DNA of 64,000 nucleotides from Chiloscyllium plagiosum. Taxonomy: Eukaryota. The stretch is from NCBI RefSeq assembly GCF_004010195.1, contig NC_057718.1, positions 44,678,143 to 44,742,142 of the forward strand. Direction: 5' to 3'. A program made the translations under genes and the position numbers. Of this stretch, positions 2,259 to 61,790 are shown one piece after another. How positions within the stretch are numbered: the stretch's first letter is position 1; each line of letters opens with the position of its first letter. The notes under the pieces were generated by a model. That model was not told the origin of the DNA. It worked only from the letters and a program-made list of their open reading frames with translations, and ran no database searches.

Positions 2259-3979
2259 ATCAATTCATTGGGAACATCATTGGTTATACAATTTTAATGA
2301 ACTCAGTCACCTGGTTTCTTATCTTTATACTCCTCCCTGCACTGCATCAAAGTTCCTGAAACAACACACCAGATAACATTCCATTCTCCCTGTCAATGAT
2401 AGGATGAAGTCTGGGCCAGCCAACATTGTGGCATACATGCCCATCAGCATTCTCTGTATATTGCCCAATCAAGATCTATATCTGAGCCCTTTGCTGCAGA
2501 ACTCATCTACAAAGCCTGGAGAAATAACAAATGAATCATCCTTTTATCTTGGCGTGCCTACTCATGCCCAATGACACACTATGTGCTTATTCTAACTTTA
2601 TGCTGGCCTATAAGGTGTATATGCAGTTAATGGCATCAAATGTCAGATCCATTAATAAAGACTCCCTATCTGTTCTGGTGCTCTCTGTATGCTCTCCTTC
2701 AGCTGTTGTCAGTTGGCAGTTGACAGTTCTTGGGTGGCTGAAAGCAAGAAATCAAAAGAGGACAGTTGGTGTGAGATAAAGGGGATGGGTAGGAAGCAAG
2801 AGTTCTGCAGTCAGACTATCAGTAGCTTTATGAACTCACTAAGCAACTGATTTGATGTCTGCCGAGGAGTATTCAAAAGGGGCAGAAGTCAGGAACATAC
2901 TATGATCCTCAATGTTGTCAGAGATGCTGGGTGCTACAGACTCTGTTGCAGTTGGAACCACACTGCTGAGGGCTACCTCCTTGATGAGACTGTAGAGATA
3001 CAGGCATCCCTGTCCCCTCAGGCTCTACTCTGCTCACTTCAGTGCTACCTTCGTCTGAATGAGAGAAGATAAAACATGAGTGATTACATTGTGTTATGTT
3101 TGAGCAATGTGGCCTGGTCAGATTGCTGGAGGAGTATGATTGCAGTGAGAGGTGATGTGTGACTTGCAGGAGGACATTGGAGAGTTGAAGAGGCGAATCT
3201 GAATATTAGACATGTGAGTGCTAGAGTATGTCGATGAGTCACTGATCACAGTGTGATGCATTGAACTGAAGGTGGTGGGTAGGGAATGTCATATAAAGAT
3301 GCATTCACTGACCTCGCCAATCCATTTGGATGGTCCTTCAACTTCTTGTGTGACTGCTTTCAAGTTCAGACACTGGGAAGTAGTCCCCTTAGCCACCTGC
3401 TCTCGCTCCCTTCTGAAGGTGTTGATGGAAATTAATTGGTTTCCTAAGTTACCATGTGACCCCCTCCTCCTGCCCATTTTCATCACTAATGTCACAGCAT
3501 TGACCGATCAGCTTGAAAATCTATTATTCAGTAATGCTTATCTTTAAAGGGGGAAGACCATGTATAATCAATACAATACTATCACAGAGGAACCAAGACC
3601 ACCAAGAGGAAACTAGCAGTACAAAACCTGCTCAGTGGATACTACAATCAAATGTTCATGCTTAAACAACACATTGAAATAGATTTTAGCTCTCCTCCAT
3701 TGTTAATAAAGTCATAACCAAACATTGAAAATTATTAATATCACAAGACAATTCACTACTCCTTTTAGAAATTCATAGAATTTAGACATTTTCCCTCAAC
3801 CAATACAGAATCCAAATCCATAGTCATCAGAAAACCACCACAAAATATACAATTAAGATCATTTGAAAAGACTGGGCCCAGGCCTCATTATTCAACTGAC
3901 AAGCATTCGTTGCCAGAATTGCATCAATGCTGGGCCAGACATAAAAGAAAGAAATTAGTTTTATTTCTATCACATTTTT

Positions 3980-4260
3980 CATAATCCAAAATCCTGTGAA
4001 AAATAGTTGAAATGCAGTCATTGTTGTAATGAAGGGAAACACAAAGGCCAATTTGCAGTTAGCTAGATTACACAAAAACAATGATATAAATGACAAGGTT
4101 AGAATTTGTTTTAAACATGGTCTTTTTTGAAACAATATTGACAAGAACATATGAGACCTTGCCCTGCTCATCTTCAAACAGCACCACAGGATTTCGTTAA
4201 TGTTCAATGTTTTAACATGAAACAACACTGCTTCCTGAATGCTACATTGAAGTATCAAGC
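3980..4260 (-). mobile_element. Ancient Deu-domain SINE-like remnant
   Basis: Reverse complement resembles 41200-41400. Confidence 0.5.
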
Positions 4261-33699: not shown

Positions 33700-35680
33700 A
33701 TGGCTCTTTCAGTCGCCAAAAGTTTTTTGGAAGTGGATGTGGTCACTTTGGAAGTTTTGCAAAAGGTGGATAAGACTACGCTGGGGGAATTAGCAGAGAA
33801 GCTGGAATTGAAACTGCCTGCTACTGTGAGGAAAGGAGAGATAATTACAGCAATAGCTCAGCATTTAAACTTGCTGGAGAAACCATCAAAATCTGTAGAG
33901 ATGGCAAAAATTCTATTGCAAATGAAATAGCTTGAGCTGCAGAATTGGGCTGAGAGATGGCAAATGGAGTTCAATACAGCTAAATGTGATGTGATGCACT
34001 TTGGGAAGAATAACAGGAAGGCAGAGTACTTGGTCAATGGAAATTCTTGGGTAGTGTGGATATGCAGAGACATCTTGGAGTCCATGTACATAGATCCCTG
34101 AAAGTTGCCATCCATGTGTATAGTGCTGTTAAGAAGGCATACGGTGTGTTAGGTTTCATTCGTGAGGGATTGAGTTCCAGAGCCGTAATATCATGCTGCA
34201 ACTATCATGCGGCCACACGTAGAATGTTGTGTACAGTTCTGGTCCCCATATTTCAGAAAGGATGTGGAAGCATTGGAAAAGGTGCAGAGGAGATTTACCA
34301 CGATGTTGCCTAGTCTGGAGGGAAGGTCTTATGAGGAAAGGCTGAGAGACTTGAACCTGTTCTCATTGGCAAGAAGAAGACTAAGGGGGGATTTGATAGA
34401 GACATGCAAGATAATCAGAGGATTAGATAGGATAGACAGTGAAAGTCTTTTTCCTAGGATGGTGACATCAGCATGTATGAGGGGGCATAATTACAAATTG
34501 AGGGGTGATCGATTTAAGACAGATGTCAGAGGCAGGTTCTTTACGCAGAGAGTGGTAAGGGCTTGGAATGCACTACCTGCTAATGTAGTCAACTTGGCCA
34601 CATTCGGGAGATATTAAACAATCCTTAGATAAGCACATGGATGATTTTGGGATAGTGTAGGGGGAACGAGCTCAGAATAGTTCAGAGGTCAGCGCAACAT
34701 CGATGGCCGAAGGGCCTGTTCTGCGCTGTATTGTTCTATATTCAATGTTCTATAAGGAAAGGGCAGCAGAAATGAAACAGTTTGAGTTACAGTTAAAAAC
34801 AAAAGAGAAAGAGAAAGAACGAAGAGCTTTAGCAGAAGAGAAAGAAAATGAGAGAACATTTGAACTTCAAAAACTGACACTTAAAAGGATGGAGATGAAG
34901 GCTGAAGGTAAGTCTAGTGAGGAAGAGAATGGGGATGAGCAAACCCATGGTGGGCGAAAGCCTGATGAGAAACTGTTTAAGTATGTTCAAACAATACCTA
35001 AATTTGATGAGAAGGATATGGAAGCCTTCTTCATCTCATTTGAAAAAGTGGCTAAATAGATGCAGTGGCCAGTGGCAATGTGGGTTTTGTTGATCCAAAC
35101 AAAAATTGTAGGTAGAGCTATTGAGGTATTCGCATTACTATCAGAGGAGGTTTCTGGGAAGTATGAGGGGGTGAAAAAAGACATTTTAAGTGCATATGAG
35201 CTTGTACCAGAAGCCTATAGGCTATGTTTCAGGAACCTAAGGAGGGACCTTGGTCAAACTTATATAGAGTTTGAAAGGATCAAACAGAGTAATTTCGATA
35301 GATGGGTAAGAGCTTTAAGAATCAAGCAAACCTATGGTGTCCTTAGCGAAGTAATTATTTTGGAGGAATTCAAATATTCACTGCCTGAAGTAGAATGAAC
35401 TATGTGGAAGAGCAGAGAGCTAAAACAGCAAGGTTAGCAGCTGAAGTGGCTGGTGATTATGAGCTGCTCCATAAAACATGGTTTGGCTTCCAGATTCAGT
35501 TTCAGCCCATGAGGGATAGAAATTGGGACAAAGAGAAATCCTCATGTGGAAAGGGCAAGGTAGATCTCAGTGAAGATCGTAAGGACAATTTACCACAGGG
35601 TAAAAAAGAAACCCTTGTAGGGGACAAAGAAGTGTTTTCGTTGTAATAAAGGGGGCCACATAAAATTACAGTGTTAGTGG
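33700..35680 (+). pseudogene. gag of the Gmr1-like element, interrupted by a CR1; SCAN-like capsid region and CCHC knuckle
   Basis: Fragments MALSVAKSFLE..., IPKFDEKDMEAFFISFEKVA and YGVLSEVIILEEFKYSLP (SCAN-like). CFRCNKGGHIKLQC at 35633-35674. Confidence 0.85.
33935..34753 (+). mobile_element. 5'-truncated CR1 LINE inserted in gypsy gag
   Basis: RPHVECCVQFWSP...LEKVQRRFT...RRLRGDLIE...FFTQRVVRAWNALP, followed by a (TGTTCTA)-like tail. Gag resumes at AAGGAAAGGGCAGCA. Confidence 0.92.
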
Positions 35681-36479
35681 GCTAGGAGAAAGCAAGATTT
35701 AGGAAAACCAGACAAGTTTTATTGGGCTAGTAACAAAAAGCACAAGAGAAGTCAGAAACTGCCTCAGAGTGTACAAGATAATCAGAGGTTGATTAAGAAG
35801 GAAGTGTCCAATCTGCTTAAAAAATATACATGCAAGGGTAAAATGTATTTACATAGGCCAAGAGCAGTAGGCAAAGAGGTTACAATATTAAGGAACAGGG
35901 TCCTCTCAGTCTGTAATGCTGAAGAATGAGGAGATACGTACGCCTGAGTGACTATTGCCAGAAAGGTATTGGTAACAAGAATTCATGGTGAGACAAAAAG
36001 CGCTCAGTTATGTAAAGTGAGGCTACAGAGTCCAGAGAAAAGTGGAGAATTTGTGGTAGGAGTACTGGACAAGCTGTCAACTCCAGAAATAGAATTTGTC
36101 CTCGCAAATGATATAGCATGCTGCCTATTTTGGTTGAAAAACCAGTGGAGGTGCAGGCAACTGAACAAATGAAGAATATTTATCCAGAAATTTTCCCAGA
36201 TTGTGTGATCACAAGATCACTGAGGCACAAGTTGAAGCAGGAGAGATCAAAAGGCACAGGTAAGGAAGCTGACATAGCTTTATCAGAAACTCTCTTCAAT
36301 CAGATAAGTGGGATAGAGCAGGAGCAACTTGGTAAACATGCAACTATTTTCAGCTCTGCTAAGCTGATTGAGTTACAACAGAAAGATGAGAACTTAAAAC
36401 AGTTGATTCAAAAGGCATATACAGAGAAGGAAAGCGAATTTATCCCTGTGTATTATTATTTAACAAATAATGTCTTAAT

Positions 36480-37600
36480 GAGGAAATGGAAACCATCACA
36501 CATTCAAGCAGATGAGAAATGGGCAAGGATTCATCAAATTATTTTGCCAGTAGGGTACAGAAAGGAGGTGCTGCAGGTGGTGCATGAACTACCACTTGGA
36601 GGTCATTTATGGTGAGGAAAACACAAGCTAAAATACAAAGACATTTTTTACTGGCCTGGACTGCACAAAGATGCAGTTGAATTTTGCCAGATGTGTCATA
36701 CATGTCAGCTAATTGGAAAGCCACAGGTAGTAATACAACCTGCACCTTCAATACCTATTCTAGCACTTGAGCAACTGTTCACAAGAGTATTAATTGATTG
36801 CATAGGTCCCCTACCTCAAGCAAAAAGTGGGAATAAGTATTCATTAACAATAATGGATGTGTCAACTAGATTTCCAGAGGCAATCCCATTATGCAACATC
36901 ACAGCAAAAAAGGGTTGTAGAAGAATTACTTAAAATGCTTAAGAGGTACAGACTACCAATAGAGATCCAGTCAGGTCAAGGATCAAACTTCACATCCAAA
37001 CTATTCAAGGAGGTTATGGATACCTTGGGAATAAAGCAATTCAAATCTACTGCGCACCATCCAGAATTGCAGGGAGCACTAGGGAGATGGCCTCAAACAC
37101 CAAAGACCATGTTAAGGGCTTATGGTCAGGATTATCCAGATGACTGGGATAAGGGAGTTCCATTTGTATTTTCTGCGATCAGAGATGTACTGAATGAATC
37201 TACCAAATTCAGTCCCTTTGAATTAATTTTTGGGCATGAAGCAAGAGGAGTGTTAAAATTGATTAAGGAGAAATTAATAAGTCAGAATTCAGAGACCACT
37301 CATTTGGACTATGTGTCAAATTTTAGAGAACAATTAATTAGACCTGGAGAGTTGGCTCGACAGCATTTGAAAGTATCACAGCATACAATGAAACAGGAAG
37401 CAGATAAGAAATTACAAGTTTGCAATTGGGGATAAGGTATTGGTGTTACTTCCAGTGACATGCGAGTCTTTAAAAGCAAGGTTTAGCGGACCTTATGAAA
37501 TCGCAAGGAAATTGAGTGAACTACTTGATAAGGACTCCAGACATGAAGAAATCTCACAGAGTGTGTCATGTGAATATGCTCAAAACGTACTTTGATAGGG
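36480..37600 (+). pseudogene. Integrase of the Gmr1-like element, located upstream of RT
   Basis: HELPLGGH...CHTC zinc finger, IDCIGPLP, SGQGSNFTS (D mutated), FSPFELIFG, and a C-terminal CHVNMLK region. Frameshifted. Confidence 0.9.
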
Positions 37601-37799
37601 AAGGAAAGCAAAAGGAGAAGGTGTTAACGATTACAGCACAGAAGGAAGAACCAAGTTCAGAGGATTCTGAATTGGACATTCCTCAAATCAAATTGGATAA
37701 TGAGGAAGTTGTCAAAAATTGGGATAATTTATCGAGTTATCTTCCACAAGAAACTCAAAATGCCCTGAAAGAGTTATTACTATCACATGAGGAGATATG

Positions 37800-39080
37800 T
37801 GGAAATAAACTGGGAAGTGCTAACCTAATTGTGCATGATGCAGATATAGGAGATGCTGTTCCGATTAAGCAACTTTCTTATAGGCATAACCCTCTAAAGT
37901 TGGCACAAGTTCAGAAGGAGAGAGAACACAGGCTCCAAGGTGGCATAATTGAAGTGAGTTACAGTGACTGAAGCTCACTCACACTCATGGTGCCAAAGCC
38001 AGGTGGTACCCAACAGTTATATGTGGACAATCGCAAAGTCAATGTCATTACAAAGACTGATGTATATCCAATTCCATGGCTGGAGGCCTGTGTCAAAAAA
38101 GTGGGACAAGCAACTTACATTTCCAAGTTTTACTTGCTCAAAGGCGACTGGCAGGTACCTCTATCCGAGAAAGCAAAGGCAATATCGGCTTTTGTAATGC
38201 CAGATGGACTATATCAGTTCAAAGTCATGCTATTTGGAATGAAAAATGCTCCAGCCACATTTCAGAGACTATCTAATAAGGTCATTGCCAGATTACCCAA
38301 CTGTGTGGTGTATATTGATAACCTGGTGATTTTTAGTCACTCATGAAAGGTACATTTACACATTCATTGGACTTGTTCAATCGACTTTGGAAGGCAGGCT
38401 TGGGTGGTAAACCTAGCTAAAAGTGAATTTGCCAAAGCGAAGTCACCTTCCTGGGCCATGTTATTGGGCAAGGACAAATGGCACCACGGGATGTGAAAAT
38501 GAAAGTAATTGGGGAATTTCCCACACCGTCAATGAAAAAAGCAGTGCTACAGTTCTCGGGATTGAGTGGATTTTACTGAATGTCTGTGCTAACAGTATGG
38601 CTCTCCACTTAGCGAATTGTTAAAAAAGGGCAAGAAGTTTCAGTGGATAGCGAACTGTCAAAAAGCATTTGACAGCCTAAAAACTGTGTTAATCACTGCT
38701 CCAGTATTAGCCACACCAGATTACACGAAGCCTTTCAAGGTGGCTATTGATGCCAGTGATGTGGGTGTCAGTGTGGTGCTCCTGCAGGAGGATGGCGAGG
38801 GAATAGAAAGACCCATCGGGTATTTTTCCAGGAAGTTGAACATTCATCAAGAGAAATATTCAACGGTGGAGAAAGAGACTTTGAGCTTGGTGTTGGCATT
38901 ACAACATTCCAGCAATGCATCTGAGACAATCGTATACACTGATCAGAAGCCATTGACATTTGTGGAAAGATTTAAAGACAAAATACCAGACTGTTTAGTT
39001 GGAGCTTGTTGTTGCATCCATTCAATTTGACAATTGGCATGTGCAGATTGCGAAAACATGATTGCCAATGCATTATTAAG
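37800..39080 (+). pseudogene. Reverse transcriptase and RNase H of the Gmr1-like element
   Basis: VPKPGG..YVDNRKVNVITKTDVYPIP, MLFGMKNAPATFQR and YIDN (from YIDD). RNase H motifs IDASDVGVSVVLLQ, YSTVEKETL and YTDQKPL. Confidence 0.92.
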
Positions 39081-51965: not shown

Positions 51966-52363
51966 AATGTGGAGGTGCTTGTATTGGACTGGGGTGGACA
52001 AAGTTAAAAATCACACAACACCAGGTTATAGCCCAACAGGTTTATTTGGAAGTATAAGCTTTTGGAAGGCTGCTCCTTCATCATAAGACACAGAATTTAT
52101 AGCAAAAGACTACAGTGTCATGCATCTGGAATGATATATAGCTGTTATGTCTTTCATCTTTTAGGATGTGTTGCAGGTTTTGGTTCATTAACATGTAAAT
52201 CCCAGAACTTCTTTTAAGTCATATTCTCGAGATAAGTTAAGGTTTTCTAAAAAAAACCTTATACTGTGTATAATCGTCCTGCTCCACAGCTACCTGATGA
52301 AGGAGCAGCACTCCGAAAGCTAGTACTTCCAAATAAACTTGGTGTTGAATGATTTTATACTTT
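51966..52363. mobile_element. Second member of the hairpin/hammerhead family, with a ~210-bp spacer
   Basis: Shares the leader and arm ...CAAAGTTAAAAATCACACAACACCAGGTTATAG with the 60630 element. + strand TAC-CTGATGA-a-GGAG-cagca-CTCC-GAAA-GCTA-GTA at 52291-52325. Confidence 0.8.
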
Positions 52364-58412: not shown

Positions 58413-60629
58413 TTCAGGAATTGTCCTAGCTAAAGGTGCATGGTTTCCACACTGATCGACTCTGCTCCTGGCAGTGTGGATTCCTGCACTGCCTCATTTG
58501 GAAGGCACCCAGCTGGAGGTTGGCGTGGAGATCTTCTCCAAAGGCCAGTGTAATCCTTTGTCTGATTAGCGATGGGAATAATGTTTCTGATCCTGATCAG
58601 AAGCTCTGGGTCAATATAAAAACATGACAAGATAACAGGAAAATGGGTACAAATCTGAGTGATCTGTTGTTTGTCATCACAAACGTAGACAAGAATCTGC
58701 AGTTTTTCTGTCTCTATTTACACACCAACTGCACATCAACAGAAGGGAGACTTTGCAATCCATGCAGATATTTGCATTGTGTGTGCTTAATCACAAGATG
58801 ACATATGCACAGTCAAAGACACCCTGGGGAACCTTGTGGTCCTTGCAAACACCAACGCTTTATCCTGTGATATCCATGGAGAATGTGATGAGTATATTTG
58901 GTCCAACAAGTATAGACATCAGACTGTTTAACGCTTTATATATCCCCTGTGACAGTCTGAAGGGAGCTTAAACAATACACAGCTTTATTACAGCCTCCCT
59001 AAAGAATTGAAGCCTTCTTATATATTAGGAGATTCATTCTGGGCCCATATACTCTGTTGGACATGGGACAGATTTTTCAATGCATGTCTCCTTCCAATTG
59101 CTCACCCTCAGTGCCATATCTTCTGTCAACATGCCTCCATTATTTTCTCCTTCTCCTGTTCTGCTGCAATCATGATGAATATATAAAGAGGGTCACATAG
59201 GTAACATAATGCAATTTGAAATCAGTGGTAATTCTAGACAGCAGTTCTTACCCTCTTTATCTAGTTGCTTGGATCGAGACATTACTTTGGGCCTGGGTTC
59301 ACTTTCCACCAATAGGAGGTTCCATCAGTATTTAACATATATTTCAGCATGGGTGTAAATCAAACATGCCAGAGTTATCATTACTCTCACAAGGAATAGT
59401 TTGTGATATTTATCTGCTTTGTTATCATTACATTCAATTTGACTGATCATTAGCATATCATCTAAAATGGCTGATTACAAGGTTGACCTATACTTGTCAT
59501 GGGATGATGGATCAAACTGGTGACAGACCTCACACATCTTTATTTGCAGCGATACACACTGCAAACATACACTTCCTCATCCAGCAAACAGTTTCAGTCT
59601 GTTTATCTTGGTAGAAGTGAATCTACAAATAATGCCCATCACTTAGATACAATTAAACATAATTAACATAAAATAATAGATTATCTTCTCTTTCCTTAAC
59701 AAAAGTATGTAGAGCTTATATATTCAACTAAATGTTCACATTAAGTCAAAGACCTCCATATTCTATACAAAGCATCATGTTAAATCCTCTCAGCCACATA
59801 ACAGTTTATTTGAGCATGAATTTCTTTCTGTGAAACTATACAAGTATTGATGACTTTCATCCATGCATTTAACTTGAGACATTTCCTTTCTGGCTGATTT
59901 TGGTTCAAACTGAAAAGATCAATCAACATTTTGTCTTACTCCCCCATTTCTTAGCGGGAACATCATCCCAAAAGGAACCATTATTTGACTAACATGACAC
60001 CCAATGTACTGAGTCTCACTTAATGAACATCAAAAAATAGAATCCTATTTCCACCTCCTCCACAAAAGCCGATATTTCAGGGGACCAAGTATGTTTCCCA
60101 ACCATTTCTTACTTTCTAAGCTTCCCAAACTAAAGGGCAAAATTTCACATTTCTATTCATGAGAAGTATTTGGTAACTAGGTACACAGGATAATTAGAAT
60201 ACAAAGCATCACTAATAATGACTAACTTCATGTTCTTTGGATCACTTGAGGGTGGAAATTTAAGTAATGCATTTATCCAAATTTAACTTACTTAATGTTT
60301 CATTTCCACCTGAAGCATTCATTGTACTCTAGGGTGCTCTTTTATAGTACTTTGTTTGGTATGCTTTTCTTTATTGGTCAGAGCATTGAGTATTAGAATT
60401 ACATCTCATCCAAGAAATATCATATCCTGGATGCCAGATCTGCTTTTTCTTATTTTTCACAGTTTTCTTTCAGTACATGGTGCTTTCATAAGATATTTCA
60501 CAAATATTTCTCTCTGAATGGTATTACCCCACTTCTTTACTCCGATGAACATGTGGTCAAAATGTGGCTATCTGAGAGTCCACTGTTACACTGAACCACT
60601 CAGGTGCTCTTCAAAGCCAAGAATAACTA

Positions 60630-60840
60630 ATCATGATTTGGAGATGCTGGTGTTGAACTGGGATGTACAAAGTTAAAAATTACACAACACCAGGTTATAG
60701 TCCAACAGGTTTAATTGGAAGCACACTAGCTTTCGGAGCGTTGCTCCCTCATCAAGACAACCACCTGATGAAGGAGCGGCGCTCCGAAAGCTAGTGTGCC
60801 TGCAATTAAACCTGTTGAATTATAACCTGGTGTTGTGTGA
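60630..60840. mobile_element. 211-bp hairpin element with hammerhead motifs on both strands and a 10-bp TSD
   Basis: AGAATAACTA occurs at 60620-60629 and 60841-60850. Arms 60682-60755 and 60765-60840 are inverted. + strand CAC-CTGATGA-a-GGAGC-ggc-GCTCC-GAAA-GCTA-GTG. Confidence 0.85.
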
Positions 60841-61119
60841 AGAATAACTAGATTTGTTTCAGTTTTTAAGTCCATTTCTGCAAGGGCCTTTCCAGCAAAA
60901 GTCTAGCTGTGTGACAAAGCTGACTATTACCTCAGATGAAGTTCCATGCTCTTTCAAACTATCCAACTCTGGTTGTTTTGCCTCTCTTATAAAATAATCC
61001 ACAAGTTTATTGGCGGCAATCAAAATATCATGGTAATGAAAATATTCTACTTCTATATCATTGTGAGACTTTTTATGGCTTTTGTTTCATTTTCTAATGT
61101 ATTTGAGCTATAGACTTCA

Positions 61120-61790
61120 TTCTGAAGCTGTGCTTTTGGGTCCTAGTCTCTCCTACTTGTCGAAACAGATTATCCCCATCGACTCAATCCAGGCCTCTCA
61201 GTATTCTGTAGGTTTCAATCAGATACCCCCTCATCCTTCTAAACTCCATTGAGTTGACACCCAGAGTCCTCAACCACTCCTCATATGACAAGCCCTTAAT
61301 TCCCATGAATCATTCTTGTGAACCACTTCTGGACCCCGTTAAAAGCCACTACATCCTTCCTTAGATACAGGAACTAAGATATTGCTCACAATATTCCAAA
61401 TGTGACCAGAGGCTCAAACAGCCTCAGCAGTACCTTCCTGTTCTTTTATTCTGGCCCTCTCAAAATGAATGCAACATTGCATTTGCTTTCTTAACTGGCA
61501 ACTGAAACTGCATGTTAATCCAAAGAGAATCTGAACTAGGATTCCTAAGTCCCTTTGTGCTTCAGATTTCTGAAGTCTATCCCCATTTAGAAAGTAGTCT
61601 ATGCCTCTGTTCTTCCTATGAAGGTACATAACCAAGACTTTCTCACATTATATTCCTTCTGCCACTTCTTCACCCCCTCTCCGTATTATTCAATTCCAAT
61701 GCAGCCTCCATGCTTCCTCAACAGTATCTGTCCCTCTTTGTGTCATCTAAAAACTAAGCAACAATGCCCTCAGTTTCTTCCAGCTGCCCA
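61120..61790 (-). mobile_element. CR1 RT C-terminal fragment
   Basis: DYFLNGDRLQKSEAQRDLGILV and RMRGYLIETYR. Confidence 0.8.

Follow-up and report, generated by a model that had tools for sequence, protein, structure and literature searches.

The window analysed here, a 64,000-nt stretch of the Chiloscyllium plagiosum genome, contains at 60619–60850 an insertion that is real and more than a product of chance. Its unit of 210 bp (60630–60839) lies between two exact copies of an 11-nt direct repeat, AAGAATAACTA, at 60619–60629 and 60840–60850, which form the target-site duplication. A sequence-only reading of this DNA had described a 211-bp hairpin with a 10-bp duplication; the inverted arms and the flanking duplication were confirmed, and both lengths had to be corrected. 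When 36 ORFs from the whole window were scanned against Pfam, 15 of which lie at 52–64 kb, no gene was found near the element. The duplication that brackets this ORF-less unit bears out the earlier view that it inserted as a single event.

The unit is not the plain hairpin that had been supposed. It opens with the tail of a long (L) arm, about 40 nt corresponding to t98–137 of the end module (60630–60670, minus strand), which is AC-rich on the minus strand and on the plus strand forms an unpaired head, the reverse complement of the tail of a Penelope-like element (PLE). The body of the long arm (60671–60755, minus strand) begins at a ribozyme core and holds a decayed hammerhead at 60724–60755. 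The short (S) arm (60756–60839, plus strand) starts with 9 nt of upstream sequence, GACAACCAC, and then follows the end module to about t90, without a tail. Positions 60631–60754 align to positions 14–137 of end module T on the minus strand, and the tail was found in 30/30 aligned family copies. In sister copies the 3′ limit of the S arm is GTGTGATTTTTAAC(T), and in the window copy it is GTGTGA, adjoining the target repeat. An inverted repeat of about 75 bp with a loop of about 9 nt had been noted previously; the repeat was found and measures 84 nt with 86% complementarity (60671–60754 versus 60766–60849) and 11 nt in between, the final 10 nt of its right arm overlapping the target repeat by chance. 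Apart from a 17-nt pair due to chance and the target repeat of 11 nt, 60300–61200 contains no direct repeat of the unit.

A minimal type I hammerhead motif lies intact in the S arm (60762–60796, plus strand), as the sequence-only reading had recognized. It is made up of CAC (60762–60764), CUGAUGA (60765–60771), A (60772), GGAGC (60773–60777), GGC (60778–60780), GCUCC (60781–60785), GAAA (60786–60789), GCUA (60790–60793) and GUG (60794–60796), and from its sequence it is predicted to be cut after GCUA, between 60793 and 60794. On the minus strand, from 60755 down to 60724, the L arm reads UUGAUGA, G, GGAGC, AAC, GCUCC, GAAA, GCUA and GUG; this motif has decayed, with a G bulge and with U3 in place of C3, which is the C-to-U core change already reported for the opposite strand. 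The L arm starts at the core, which leaves its hammerhead lacking its own 5′ strand of helix I. The part of PMC4209133 available to us defines the minimal hammerhead by the core boxes CUGANGA and GAAA and by a cleavable H17 after helix III; the right arm has all of these, and the left arm departs from them at U3. The A at 60772 followed by GGAGC/GCUCC also agrees with the published minimal hammerhead, as does the corresponding part of two other hammerhead families of the shark genome, which were sought by a scan that allowed 0 or 1 extra nucleotide at this position. The palindromic positions 15.2–16.2, which lie outside the hammerhead search descriptor and would allow a dimeric helix III, are also present, as AGCU here and as ACGU in the second family. 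In a two-strand fold, dimeric helix III was not the minimum-energy pairing, and the two helix II strands paired instead.

The covariance-model search that had been suggested for the hammerhead turned out negative: four Rfam scans of the window copy and of a near-intact sister copy, at the gathering score or at E values up to 10, gave no hammerhead match. The only Rfam matches were to miRNA-precursor models, below threshold, and these are due to the hairpin. RNA reads did not pile up with their ends at the cut site, in a 3′-end single-cell library that is unsuited to the cleavage question. Reads from a sister copy mark AAUUAAA (60804–60810, plus strand) as the likely polyadenylation signal of the module: in sister copy L054, at another locus, loose read ends with poly(T) lie at 1475 (342 reads) and 1478 (267 reads), placing the poly(A) about 15 nt past the hexamer. 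The RNA of the unit folds at −123.6 kcal/mol (z = −18), a value reached by 0 of 200 shuffles, and the module alone folds into a stem-loop at about t75–121 whose 3′ strand is AC-rich. In a transcript of the whole unit the two arms would pair as a duplex of about 80 bp that would keep the ribozyme from folding, and the presence of one hammerhead per strand may follow incidentally from the inverted duplication.

Counted with a 35-place pattern, the 35-nt ribozyme motif has 6184 exact matches in the genome, against 0 for the reversed control, and a 200-kb random sample gave a family density of about one locus per 50 kb. A genome search with a single 90-nt arm found no match, which carries no weight on rarity, as very common words are skipped in such a search. 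Searching the shark's own genome with the unit returned 3351 first-look candidates; the best 40 were scored and 40/40 span the entire unit, a uniformity that is partly selection, as these matches were chosen by likeness to the query. Flanks differ in all 30/30 aligned copies. A census covered 86 motif-anchored units on one contig; it favours young copies because it was anchored on an intact 35-nt motif, and hairpins had two chances of being sampled in it. Mini hairpins were the commonest class (40/86 units). A flanking repeat of at least 9 nt was found around 33 of the 40 mini head-to-head units (median 13), compared with 41 of 389 shuffled pairings (median 7), and the repeats of mini units, as measured here, span 6 to 16 nt. 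The genome search proposed by the sequence-only reading found many copies that share outer ends and have individual target duplications. An apparent preference for GTAA at target ends was rejected, since the sample query included the window's own flank and the preference was absent among the flanks of the 40-unit test.

The same end module is also found in a copy with a reverse transcriptase (RT) ORF. This copy, L141, is a 3.8-kb unit with 626-nt inverted arms that are 94% identical. It terminates in an S end and, at its opposite side, in an L end, and its target repeat measures 12 bp. Its ORF at 2067–3122 matches RVT_1 (E = 1.9e-8), and the end module lies at 4106–4230, within the same unit. 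The RVT_1 ORF is followed by a GIY...YIG-like segment (translation ...VYLIRC..C....YIGET..RL..R...), which we take to be PLE-like; it shares 54–98% identity with predicted proteins whose names refer to five shark species, has no Pfam match at E values up to 10, and matches in the PDB only phage T4 endonuclease II (E = 0.31). A protein-atlas look-up returned RT-like clusters only. L141 provides the autonomous partner expected of a PLE, with an RT ORF upstream of the same end module, and it supports the earlier proposal that the unit is a product of PLE machinery. The earlier view that the unit carries PLE-type minimal hammerheads is likewise supported.

Comparison of the two arms across the census revealed a near-absolute rule. 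Among 47 adjacent head-to-head units, 41 were L/S, 2 S/S, none L/L and 4 ambiguous, so that 41 of 43 classifiable pairs combine one tailed with one tail-less arm (P for at least 41/43 under independent choice = 2.9e-15). The partner search reached 1.5 kb only, and at least one pair scored as two solos (L098, L099) is truly one L/S unit. Solo copies comprised 23 S, 8 L and 1 ambiguous; the outer ends of the hairpins are no different from the two 3′ ends at which the module usually stops, each of which is seen in solo copies as well. The existence of solo S and solo L copies would suit two independent insertions that happened to land head to head. However, a single target duplication brackets the pair with none between the arms, L/S pairs account for 41 of the 43 classifiable cases, and adjacent pairs make up 40/86 units in a family that has about one locus per 50 kb of random DNA. 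A MITE moved as a DNA transposon, the other way of reading a small unit of this kind, fits poorly with an inverted repeat that stops short of the left end and with flanking repeats that vary in length, unlike those of a cut-and-paste transposon. The L/S rule and the flanking-repeat test refute both explanations for practical purposes, and we consider them extremely improbable.

The inner ends of the arms follow a different pattern. Arm 5′ starts cluster, with 56 of 86 anchored arms beginning at most 16 nt upstream of the ribozyme core, and both arms in the window begin at the core or just upstream of it. Upstream of the core, arm lengths vary without a break between about 0 and 626 nt, and the one-tail rule is the same throughout this range; 5′-truncation was seen in 11/24 long arms and 3/15 short arms, a difference that is not significant (Fisher p = 0.17). 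The fallback offered by the sequence-only reading, an extreme truncation product, came closest to what we observe, except that the clustered starts show the truncation not to be random. Centre junctions comprised 36 distinct sequences among 46 pairs, the commonest being seen 4 times. Because the junction differs between copies, the hairpin was most likely made anew at each insertion and not inherited.

These junctions weigh against the interpretation that the sequence-only reading had preferred, in which a non-autonomous hairpin element of retrozyme/MITE-like character would undergo transcription and retrotransposition as one piece of 210 nt and would use its ribozymes on both strands. Such a family would account for the many copies with the same outer ends and individual target duplications, and for a few recurrent centre types (GTGACTATCAC in 4 pairs, and three more in 3 pairs each). 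Yet the likeness of the best 40 matches partly reflects how they were picked, and the same L/S architecture extends to units with arms of 120–626 nt and an RT ORF inside. A transcript of the unit would moreover form a duplex in which the ribozyme is masked. No tandem arrangement exists at the locus (60300–61200), and the sampled units are inverted pairs or solo copies, with neither tandem arrays nor the terminal inverted repeats of a retrozyme/MITE-like hybrid. We therefore regard propagation as a hairpin unit as very unlikely.

Collectively, our results lead us to conclude, with a probability of roughly 60%, that the unit is the minimal insertion unit of a shark PLE and that its hairpin was likely created at insertion rather than inherited. 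A single target duplication of 11 bp encloses two copies, in head-to-head order, of an end module of about 100–140 nt, which contains the minimal hammerhead, AAUUAAA and the AC-rich stem-loop; the L arm stops at the outer 3′ end, with a 40-nt tail, and the S arm at the inner 3′ end, with none. In the mechanism that we propose, the RT-endonuclease would nick the two target strands at points separated by 11 bp, and reverse transcription would be primed from each of the 3′ ends so freed. One cDNA would begin at the inner site and the other at the outer, probably with one short RNA as their common template. Both would extend as far as the 5′ end of the RNA, a few nucleotides before the hammerhead, where their ends would be joined to form the centre of the unit. 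We infer priming from two strands from the architecture and from in-vitro work on a different PLE. Use of the same RNA predicts arms that are identical at birth; shared derived variants do exceed the number in shuffled pairs, but most arm variants are private (141, versus 11 shared). A test of one versus two templates by shared and private variants, timed by CpG decay, was limited by the 6 CpG positions of the arm, too few to tell differences at birth from later decay.

A hairpin could also arise from a single primed strand, if an outer-primed cDNA reached the 5′ end of the RNA, folded back, copied itself to about t97 and was joined by microhomology to the other side of the break. Self-priming of this kind has been proposed for PLE head-to-head repeats in the portion of PMC3846280 available to us, and it agrees with the palindromic junctions, some of them loop-less (unit L029 is palindromic to the centre), with a centre, GTGATCAC, that was seen 3 times, and with the variable overlap of the copies' right ends with the target. 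Derived variants common to both arms point the same way, numbering 11 against 3.85 ± 1.77 after shuffling (maximum 10 in 2000 shuffles). Fold-back leaves unexplained, however, why the copied-back arm should stop at the commonest 3′ end of solo copies, which have target repeats of their own (23 S versus 8 L). In at least five units (L076, L081, L091, L107 and L131) the S arm is complete and the L arm starts 40–95 nt inside the module, so that, barring later deletion, the L arm was not the template there. The middle base of loop II is also discordant in 9/45 pairs. On this evidence we judge fold-back of one cDNA to be rather unlikely.

An insert of this head-to-head kind is very abundant and already described, and it matches published PLE architecture and in-vitro data. 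The copy in the window is likely an old insertion in which nothing but the ribozyme-bearing end was copied, twice and head to head, with both cut DNA strands probably serving as primers. How PLEs integrate is still little understood, their inverted repeats and one-sided tail having been described but explained only tentatively. Because of its abundance the family offers a good data set for testing models of integration. Such models are constrained by two features, the all but invariable pairing of a tailed with a tail-less arm and the crowding of 5′ ends immediately before the hammerhead. We further suggest, at somewhat less than even odds, that the mini hairpins, which number tens of thousands, are a natural record of a coupled reaction in which one PLE particle primes both nicked strands on a single short hammerhead-headed RNA, with the inner start site serving one strand and the outer start site its partner. 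If so, the coupled reaction would explain why units almost never have two tails or none, the hairpins would be the first in-genome evidence for two-strand priming, so far seen only in vitro, and the units would constitute a large built-in source of double-stranded RNA of about 90 bp wherever they are transcribed. For annotation, the units should be masked as PLE ends; they are neither miRNA precursors, despite the sub-threshold Rfam matches, nor MITEs.

Published PLE units, as presented in the accessible parts of PMC8557442 and PMC3846280, consist of an inverted 5′-truncated copy with a tail of 30–40 bp at one end only and a target duplication, and the window unit and its family show all three features. 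The canonical endonuclease-bearing units described there (Penelope/Poseidon, Neptune) have the same head-to-head 5′-truncated copy, a hammerhead in the terminal repeat, the same one-end tail and a short duplication around the whole, and the window tail matches the 30–40 bp tail given in these sources and in PMC11167929. Unlike in the canonical unit, both copies in the window are reduced to the last 85–140 nt or so, and only two end modules are left. For the minimal hammerheads of metazoan PLEs, the available part of Cervera and De la Pena 2014 (PMC4209133) describes dual motifs on opposite strands, 100–700 bp apart. The shark motif shares with these the absence of a real helix III, with only the palindromic AGCU, and a short helix I; here helix I has only 3 bp, helix II has 5 bp as against 6–8 bp in several of the families described there, the two motifs lie about 10–40 nt apart, and self-cleavage is a prediction read from the motif.

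In vitro, the two target strands are each cut and then extended by the protein of the lizard PLE PAc (Poseidon of Anolis). Its reverse transcription begins at two internal positions that lie in or near an AC-rich stem-loop, and the distance between them equals the tail (Frangieh et al. 2024, PMC11167929). The shark module likewise has a stem-loop with an AC-rich 3′ strand (about t75–121). In the test tube PAc shows no difference in start site between strands, whereas the shark units pair one tailed with one tail-less arm in 41/43 cases. Non-LTR retrozymes, according to the available parts of bioRxiv 10.64898/2026.07.22.740005 and PMC7761336, are head-to-tail tandem hammerhead repeats processed into circular RNAs. 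The window unit resembles them in being short, non-coding, hammerhead-bearing and derived from PLE terminal repeats, and differs from them in being a single inverted pair with no tandem copy; in the accessible text of the bioRxiv article, 'hairpin' and 'palindrom' do not occur, and 'inverted' appears only in the title of a reference. With MITEs the unit has in common its small size, its lack of coding sequence, an internal inverted repeat and flanking duplications. It differs from them in that the repeat is not terminal, leaving an unpaired head of 41 nt, in that the flanking repeats are variable in length, and in that its sequence belongs to the end of a retroelement with an RT ORF.

The repeat finder and the window sequence show an 11-nt direct repeat, AAGAATAACTA, in two identical copies (60619-60629 and 60840-60850) that bracket an insertion unit of 210 bp (60630-60839). 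The sequence-only reading had put the unit at 211 bp with a 10-bp target site duplication; a duplication-flanked unit stands, with both lengths corrected. The window sequence and the repeat finder also bore out its inverted repeat, its direct repeats and a hammerhead on each strand. The inverted arms are 84 nt long, 86% complementary and separated by 11 nt (60671-60754 and 60766-60849); the overlap of the right-arm tip with the direct repeat is due to chance. The right-arm hammerhead, CAC-CUGAUGA-A-GGAGC-GGC-GCUCC-GAAA-GCUA-GUG, lies at 60762-60796 on the forward strand. Its left-arm counterpart runs on the opposite strand from 60755 down to 60724, with a G bulge and U in place of C3, the core change already noticed; since the left arm starts at the core, it supplies no 5' strand for helix I. 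Folded computationally as RNA, the unit forms a single long hairpin (-123.6 kcal/mol, z = -18), outside which the first 41 nt (60630-60670) remain as an unpaired head. In the hammerhead search that had been proposed, Rfam hammerhead models matched neither the window unit nor a near-intact sister copy; the sole Rfam matches were sub-threshold microRNA-precursor models responding to the hairpin shape. No recognisable coding ORF was found near the unit. The window copy is old, as judged from the 86% complementarity of its arms and the loss of one intact ribozyme. Elsewhere in the window lies a decayed LTR-type retroelement (about 35060-39030, forward strand), in which fragments of ORFs show matches to the SCAN-like, integrase core, RVT_1 and RT-RNase H families.

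The window unit is a member of a real, very abundant repeat. A search of the shark's own genome with a 231-nt stretch gave 3351 first-look candidates, of which the best 40 were scored; all of these span the whole unit at 85-93% identity, a uniformity that is partly a selection effect, since they were chosen by likeness to the query. In an alignment of thirty of the 40, the flanks differ in each copy and each has its own short flanking repeat. The exact 35-nt right-arm hammerhead motif, with one loop base free, occurs 6184 times in the genome (3136 + 3048), and its reversed control 0 times. A 200-kb sample drawn at round coordinates, of which 9546 positions are N, contains four family loci, or roughly one per 50 kb as an order-of-magnitude estimate.

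Copies were aligned against a reference arm, T, cut from a natural copy whose palindrome extends to its centre. In these terms the window unit is the reverse complement of T 1-137 followed by T 1-97, so that the 41-nt unpaired head is the reverse complement of one arm's 40-nt extension. The start of this end module lies some 10 nt before CUGAUGA, and the module has two 3' ends, a short one (S) at about t97 (...GTGTGATTTTTAAC) and a long one (L) at about t137 (...CCAAATCATGA). Its predicted fold comprises helix II and a stem-loop that spans about t75-121 and is AC-rich in its 3' strand; the S site falls near the apex of this stem-loop and the L site just past it. Some solo S copies carry their own flanking repeats (e.g. 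loci L117 and L104), and S is thus a genuine start site, more than a junction. A second module copy lies in the window at 51967-52083 (reverse strand; t14-132, 86% identity), and 209 bp from it, in the opposite orientation, is a 53-nt fragment (52292-52344, forward strand).

To describe the family's architecture, we took the first 100 listed matches of the 35-nt motif in genome order on contig 1, a sample unbiased for architecture except for the requirement of an intact motif. Loci were drawn from 30 + 60 of these matches, 5 matches fell in loci already included and the last five were left out; 4 loci dropped as the other arm of a counted unit left 86 units. These comprised 40 mini and 7 longer head-to-head units, 7 inverted pairs separated by a spacer, and 15 mini and 17 longer solo copies. 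The longer solo copies include at least one pair that is really one unit (L098 and L099, which are opposite ends of L141, described below), because the partner search spanned only 1.5 kb. Allowing one mismatch, a flanking repeat of at least 9 nt was found in 33/40 mini units (median 13), compared with 41/389 shuffled left/right pairings (median 7), which shows that each hairpin is a single insertion event. Among the 47 adjacent head-to-head units, 41 were L/S, 2 S/S, none L/L and 4 ambiguous; independent choice of ends, given solo copies of 23 S, 8 L and 1 ambiguous, predicts 38% L/S pairs (P(>=41/43) = 2.9e-15). Sequences between the cores were also diverse, with 36 distinct centres in 46 pairs and the commonest seen 4 times, indicating that the hairpin is made anew in most insertions and not from a few master hairpins. 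Of these results, the one-tail rule (one L and one S arm per unit) and the variety of junctions most deserve further work. Two contig 1 loci, L057 and L069, are more complex than a single pair: within 700 bp, each has several incomplete modules whose orientation alternates or repeats.

These data divide the earlier interpretation. A non-coding unit made by a Penelope-like element (PLE) in one insertion event is upheld; a self-propagating ambisense-ribozyme hairpin family is not, given the diversity of centres. The presence of a hammerhead on both strands is a consequence of the inverted duplication. Ribozyme activity would not be expected in a transcript of the unit, because the sense ribozyme is predicted to pair with its antisense copy. 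Nor does ribozyme cleavage define the copied RNA, since 5' ends cluster before the ribozyme and not after GCUA: 56/86 anchored arms start at most 16 nt upstream of the core, the remainder being spread out. In one raw-read RNA run (X21, a 3'-end single-cell library), coverage of a sister copy was mainly sense-strand, with 1723/1841 reads matching it only partly, and no pile-up of read ends was seen at the hammerhead cut site, although a library of this kind is ill suited to showing one. At L054:1475-1478 in that copy, corresponding to about t73 of the module and 60825 in the window right arm, 342 and 267 reads, some of them perhaps duplicates of one molecule, carry long poly(T) loose ends. These put the poly(A) addition site about 15 nt downstream of the AAUUAAA within the module. 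Polyadenylated transcripts would lack the start sites, because poly(A) is added upstream of both.

We infer that two-strand priming on the end module is the most likely mechanism of hairpin formation. The PLE protein would nick the two strands of the target at positions offset by about 11-13 bp; each target 3' end would prime cDNA on the module, one at the inner site and the other at the outer; both cDNAs would extend to the RNA 5' end, immediately upstream of the hammerhead, after which their ends would be joined. If a single RNA served both cDNAs, the near-absence of S/S and L/L pairs would follow, as would more frequent truncation of L arms (observed in 11/24, versus 3/15 S arms; not significant, p = 0.17). 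In copies of poorly dated age, arm variants are mostly private (141 vs 11 shared), which speaks against a single template, whereas shared derived variants exceed chance (11 vs 3.85 +/- 1.77). The loop II middle base (60779 in the window right arm) is discordant between arms in 9/45 pairs and non-consensus in 50/188 arms, the next most variable site reaching 14; this would fit either a mutational hot spot or the use of two templates. A live rival is snap-back self-priming, proposed in PMC3846280, which fits the palindromic centres but leaves the fixed S end unexplained and sits poorly with units whose L arm is without 40-95 nt present in the S arm. Two-strand priming remains the reading we prefer.

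Longer copies link the module to an RT-bearing element. Inverted pairs with longer arms (165-494 nt) were found, as were copies with 5' ends scattered to at least 400 nt upstream. The L141 unit (3.8 kb) has 626-nt inverted arms, 94% identical; it terminates in S on the left and in L on the right, and is flanked by a 12-bp repeat. Between the arms, a decayed ORF matches RVT_1 (E = 1.9e-8), and downstream of it lies a segment ...VYLIRC..C....YIGET..., which we take to be the GIY-YIG nuclease motif of PLEs; Pfam and PDB searches gave no confirming match for this identity. Predicted proteins named from five shark species match the segment at 54-98% identity, the best being from Chiloscyllium punctatum, and the PLE lineage is therefore widespread in sharks. 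Sequence words of a sister copy also occur in sequencing runs of four organisms. A second internal inverted repeat in the ORF region (L141:1721-1993 and 3220-3476; 273 nt, 92% identity) suggests a further rearrangement. The putative endonuclease segment also appears, at 61-90% identity, within several sharks' gene models named as ordinary host proteins (P0002, P0012, P0020, P0022 and P0028-P0031; e.g. a PPP1R12A-like isoform, septin 5a, XRCC5 and CYP2C-like), either as exonised PLE fragments or through annotation errors.

At least two further minimal-hammerhead families occur in 618 kb of sampled C. plagiosum loci: CUGA(A/U)GA-A-GGGC...GCCC-GAAACGUC and CUGAGGA-A-GGGUC...GACCC-GAAACGUU. Both retain helix II pairing with compensatory changes, the extra A and the palindrome, which, as noted with the GGGC/GCCC family, is ACGU in place of AGCU; only the extra A and the palindrome are independent of the search, because the descriptor demanded helix II pairing. 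The hammerhead of the window family shows the features that PMC4209133 gives for minimal hammerheads of PLEs, and dual motifs on opposite strands are also noted there.

Collectively, the window unit is a shark example of an already known type of structure. As described for rotifer, fly and fish elements in PMC3846280 and PMC8557442, PLE units carry an adjacent inverted 5'-truncated repeat with mostly head-to-head junctions, an optional 31-40 bp tail at one end, and a target duplication surrounding the whole unit. In purified form, the protein of a lizard PLE cuts the two strands of its target and extends each of them. It starts reverse transcription from a pair of internal sites, located in an AC-rich stem-loop, and the spacing of these sites corresponds to the tail; the lizard hammerhead requires the protein for cutting and is dispensable for insertion in vitro (PMC11167929).
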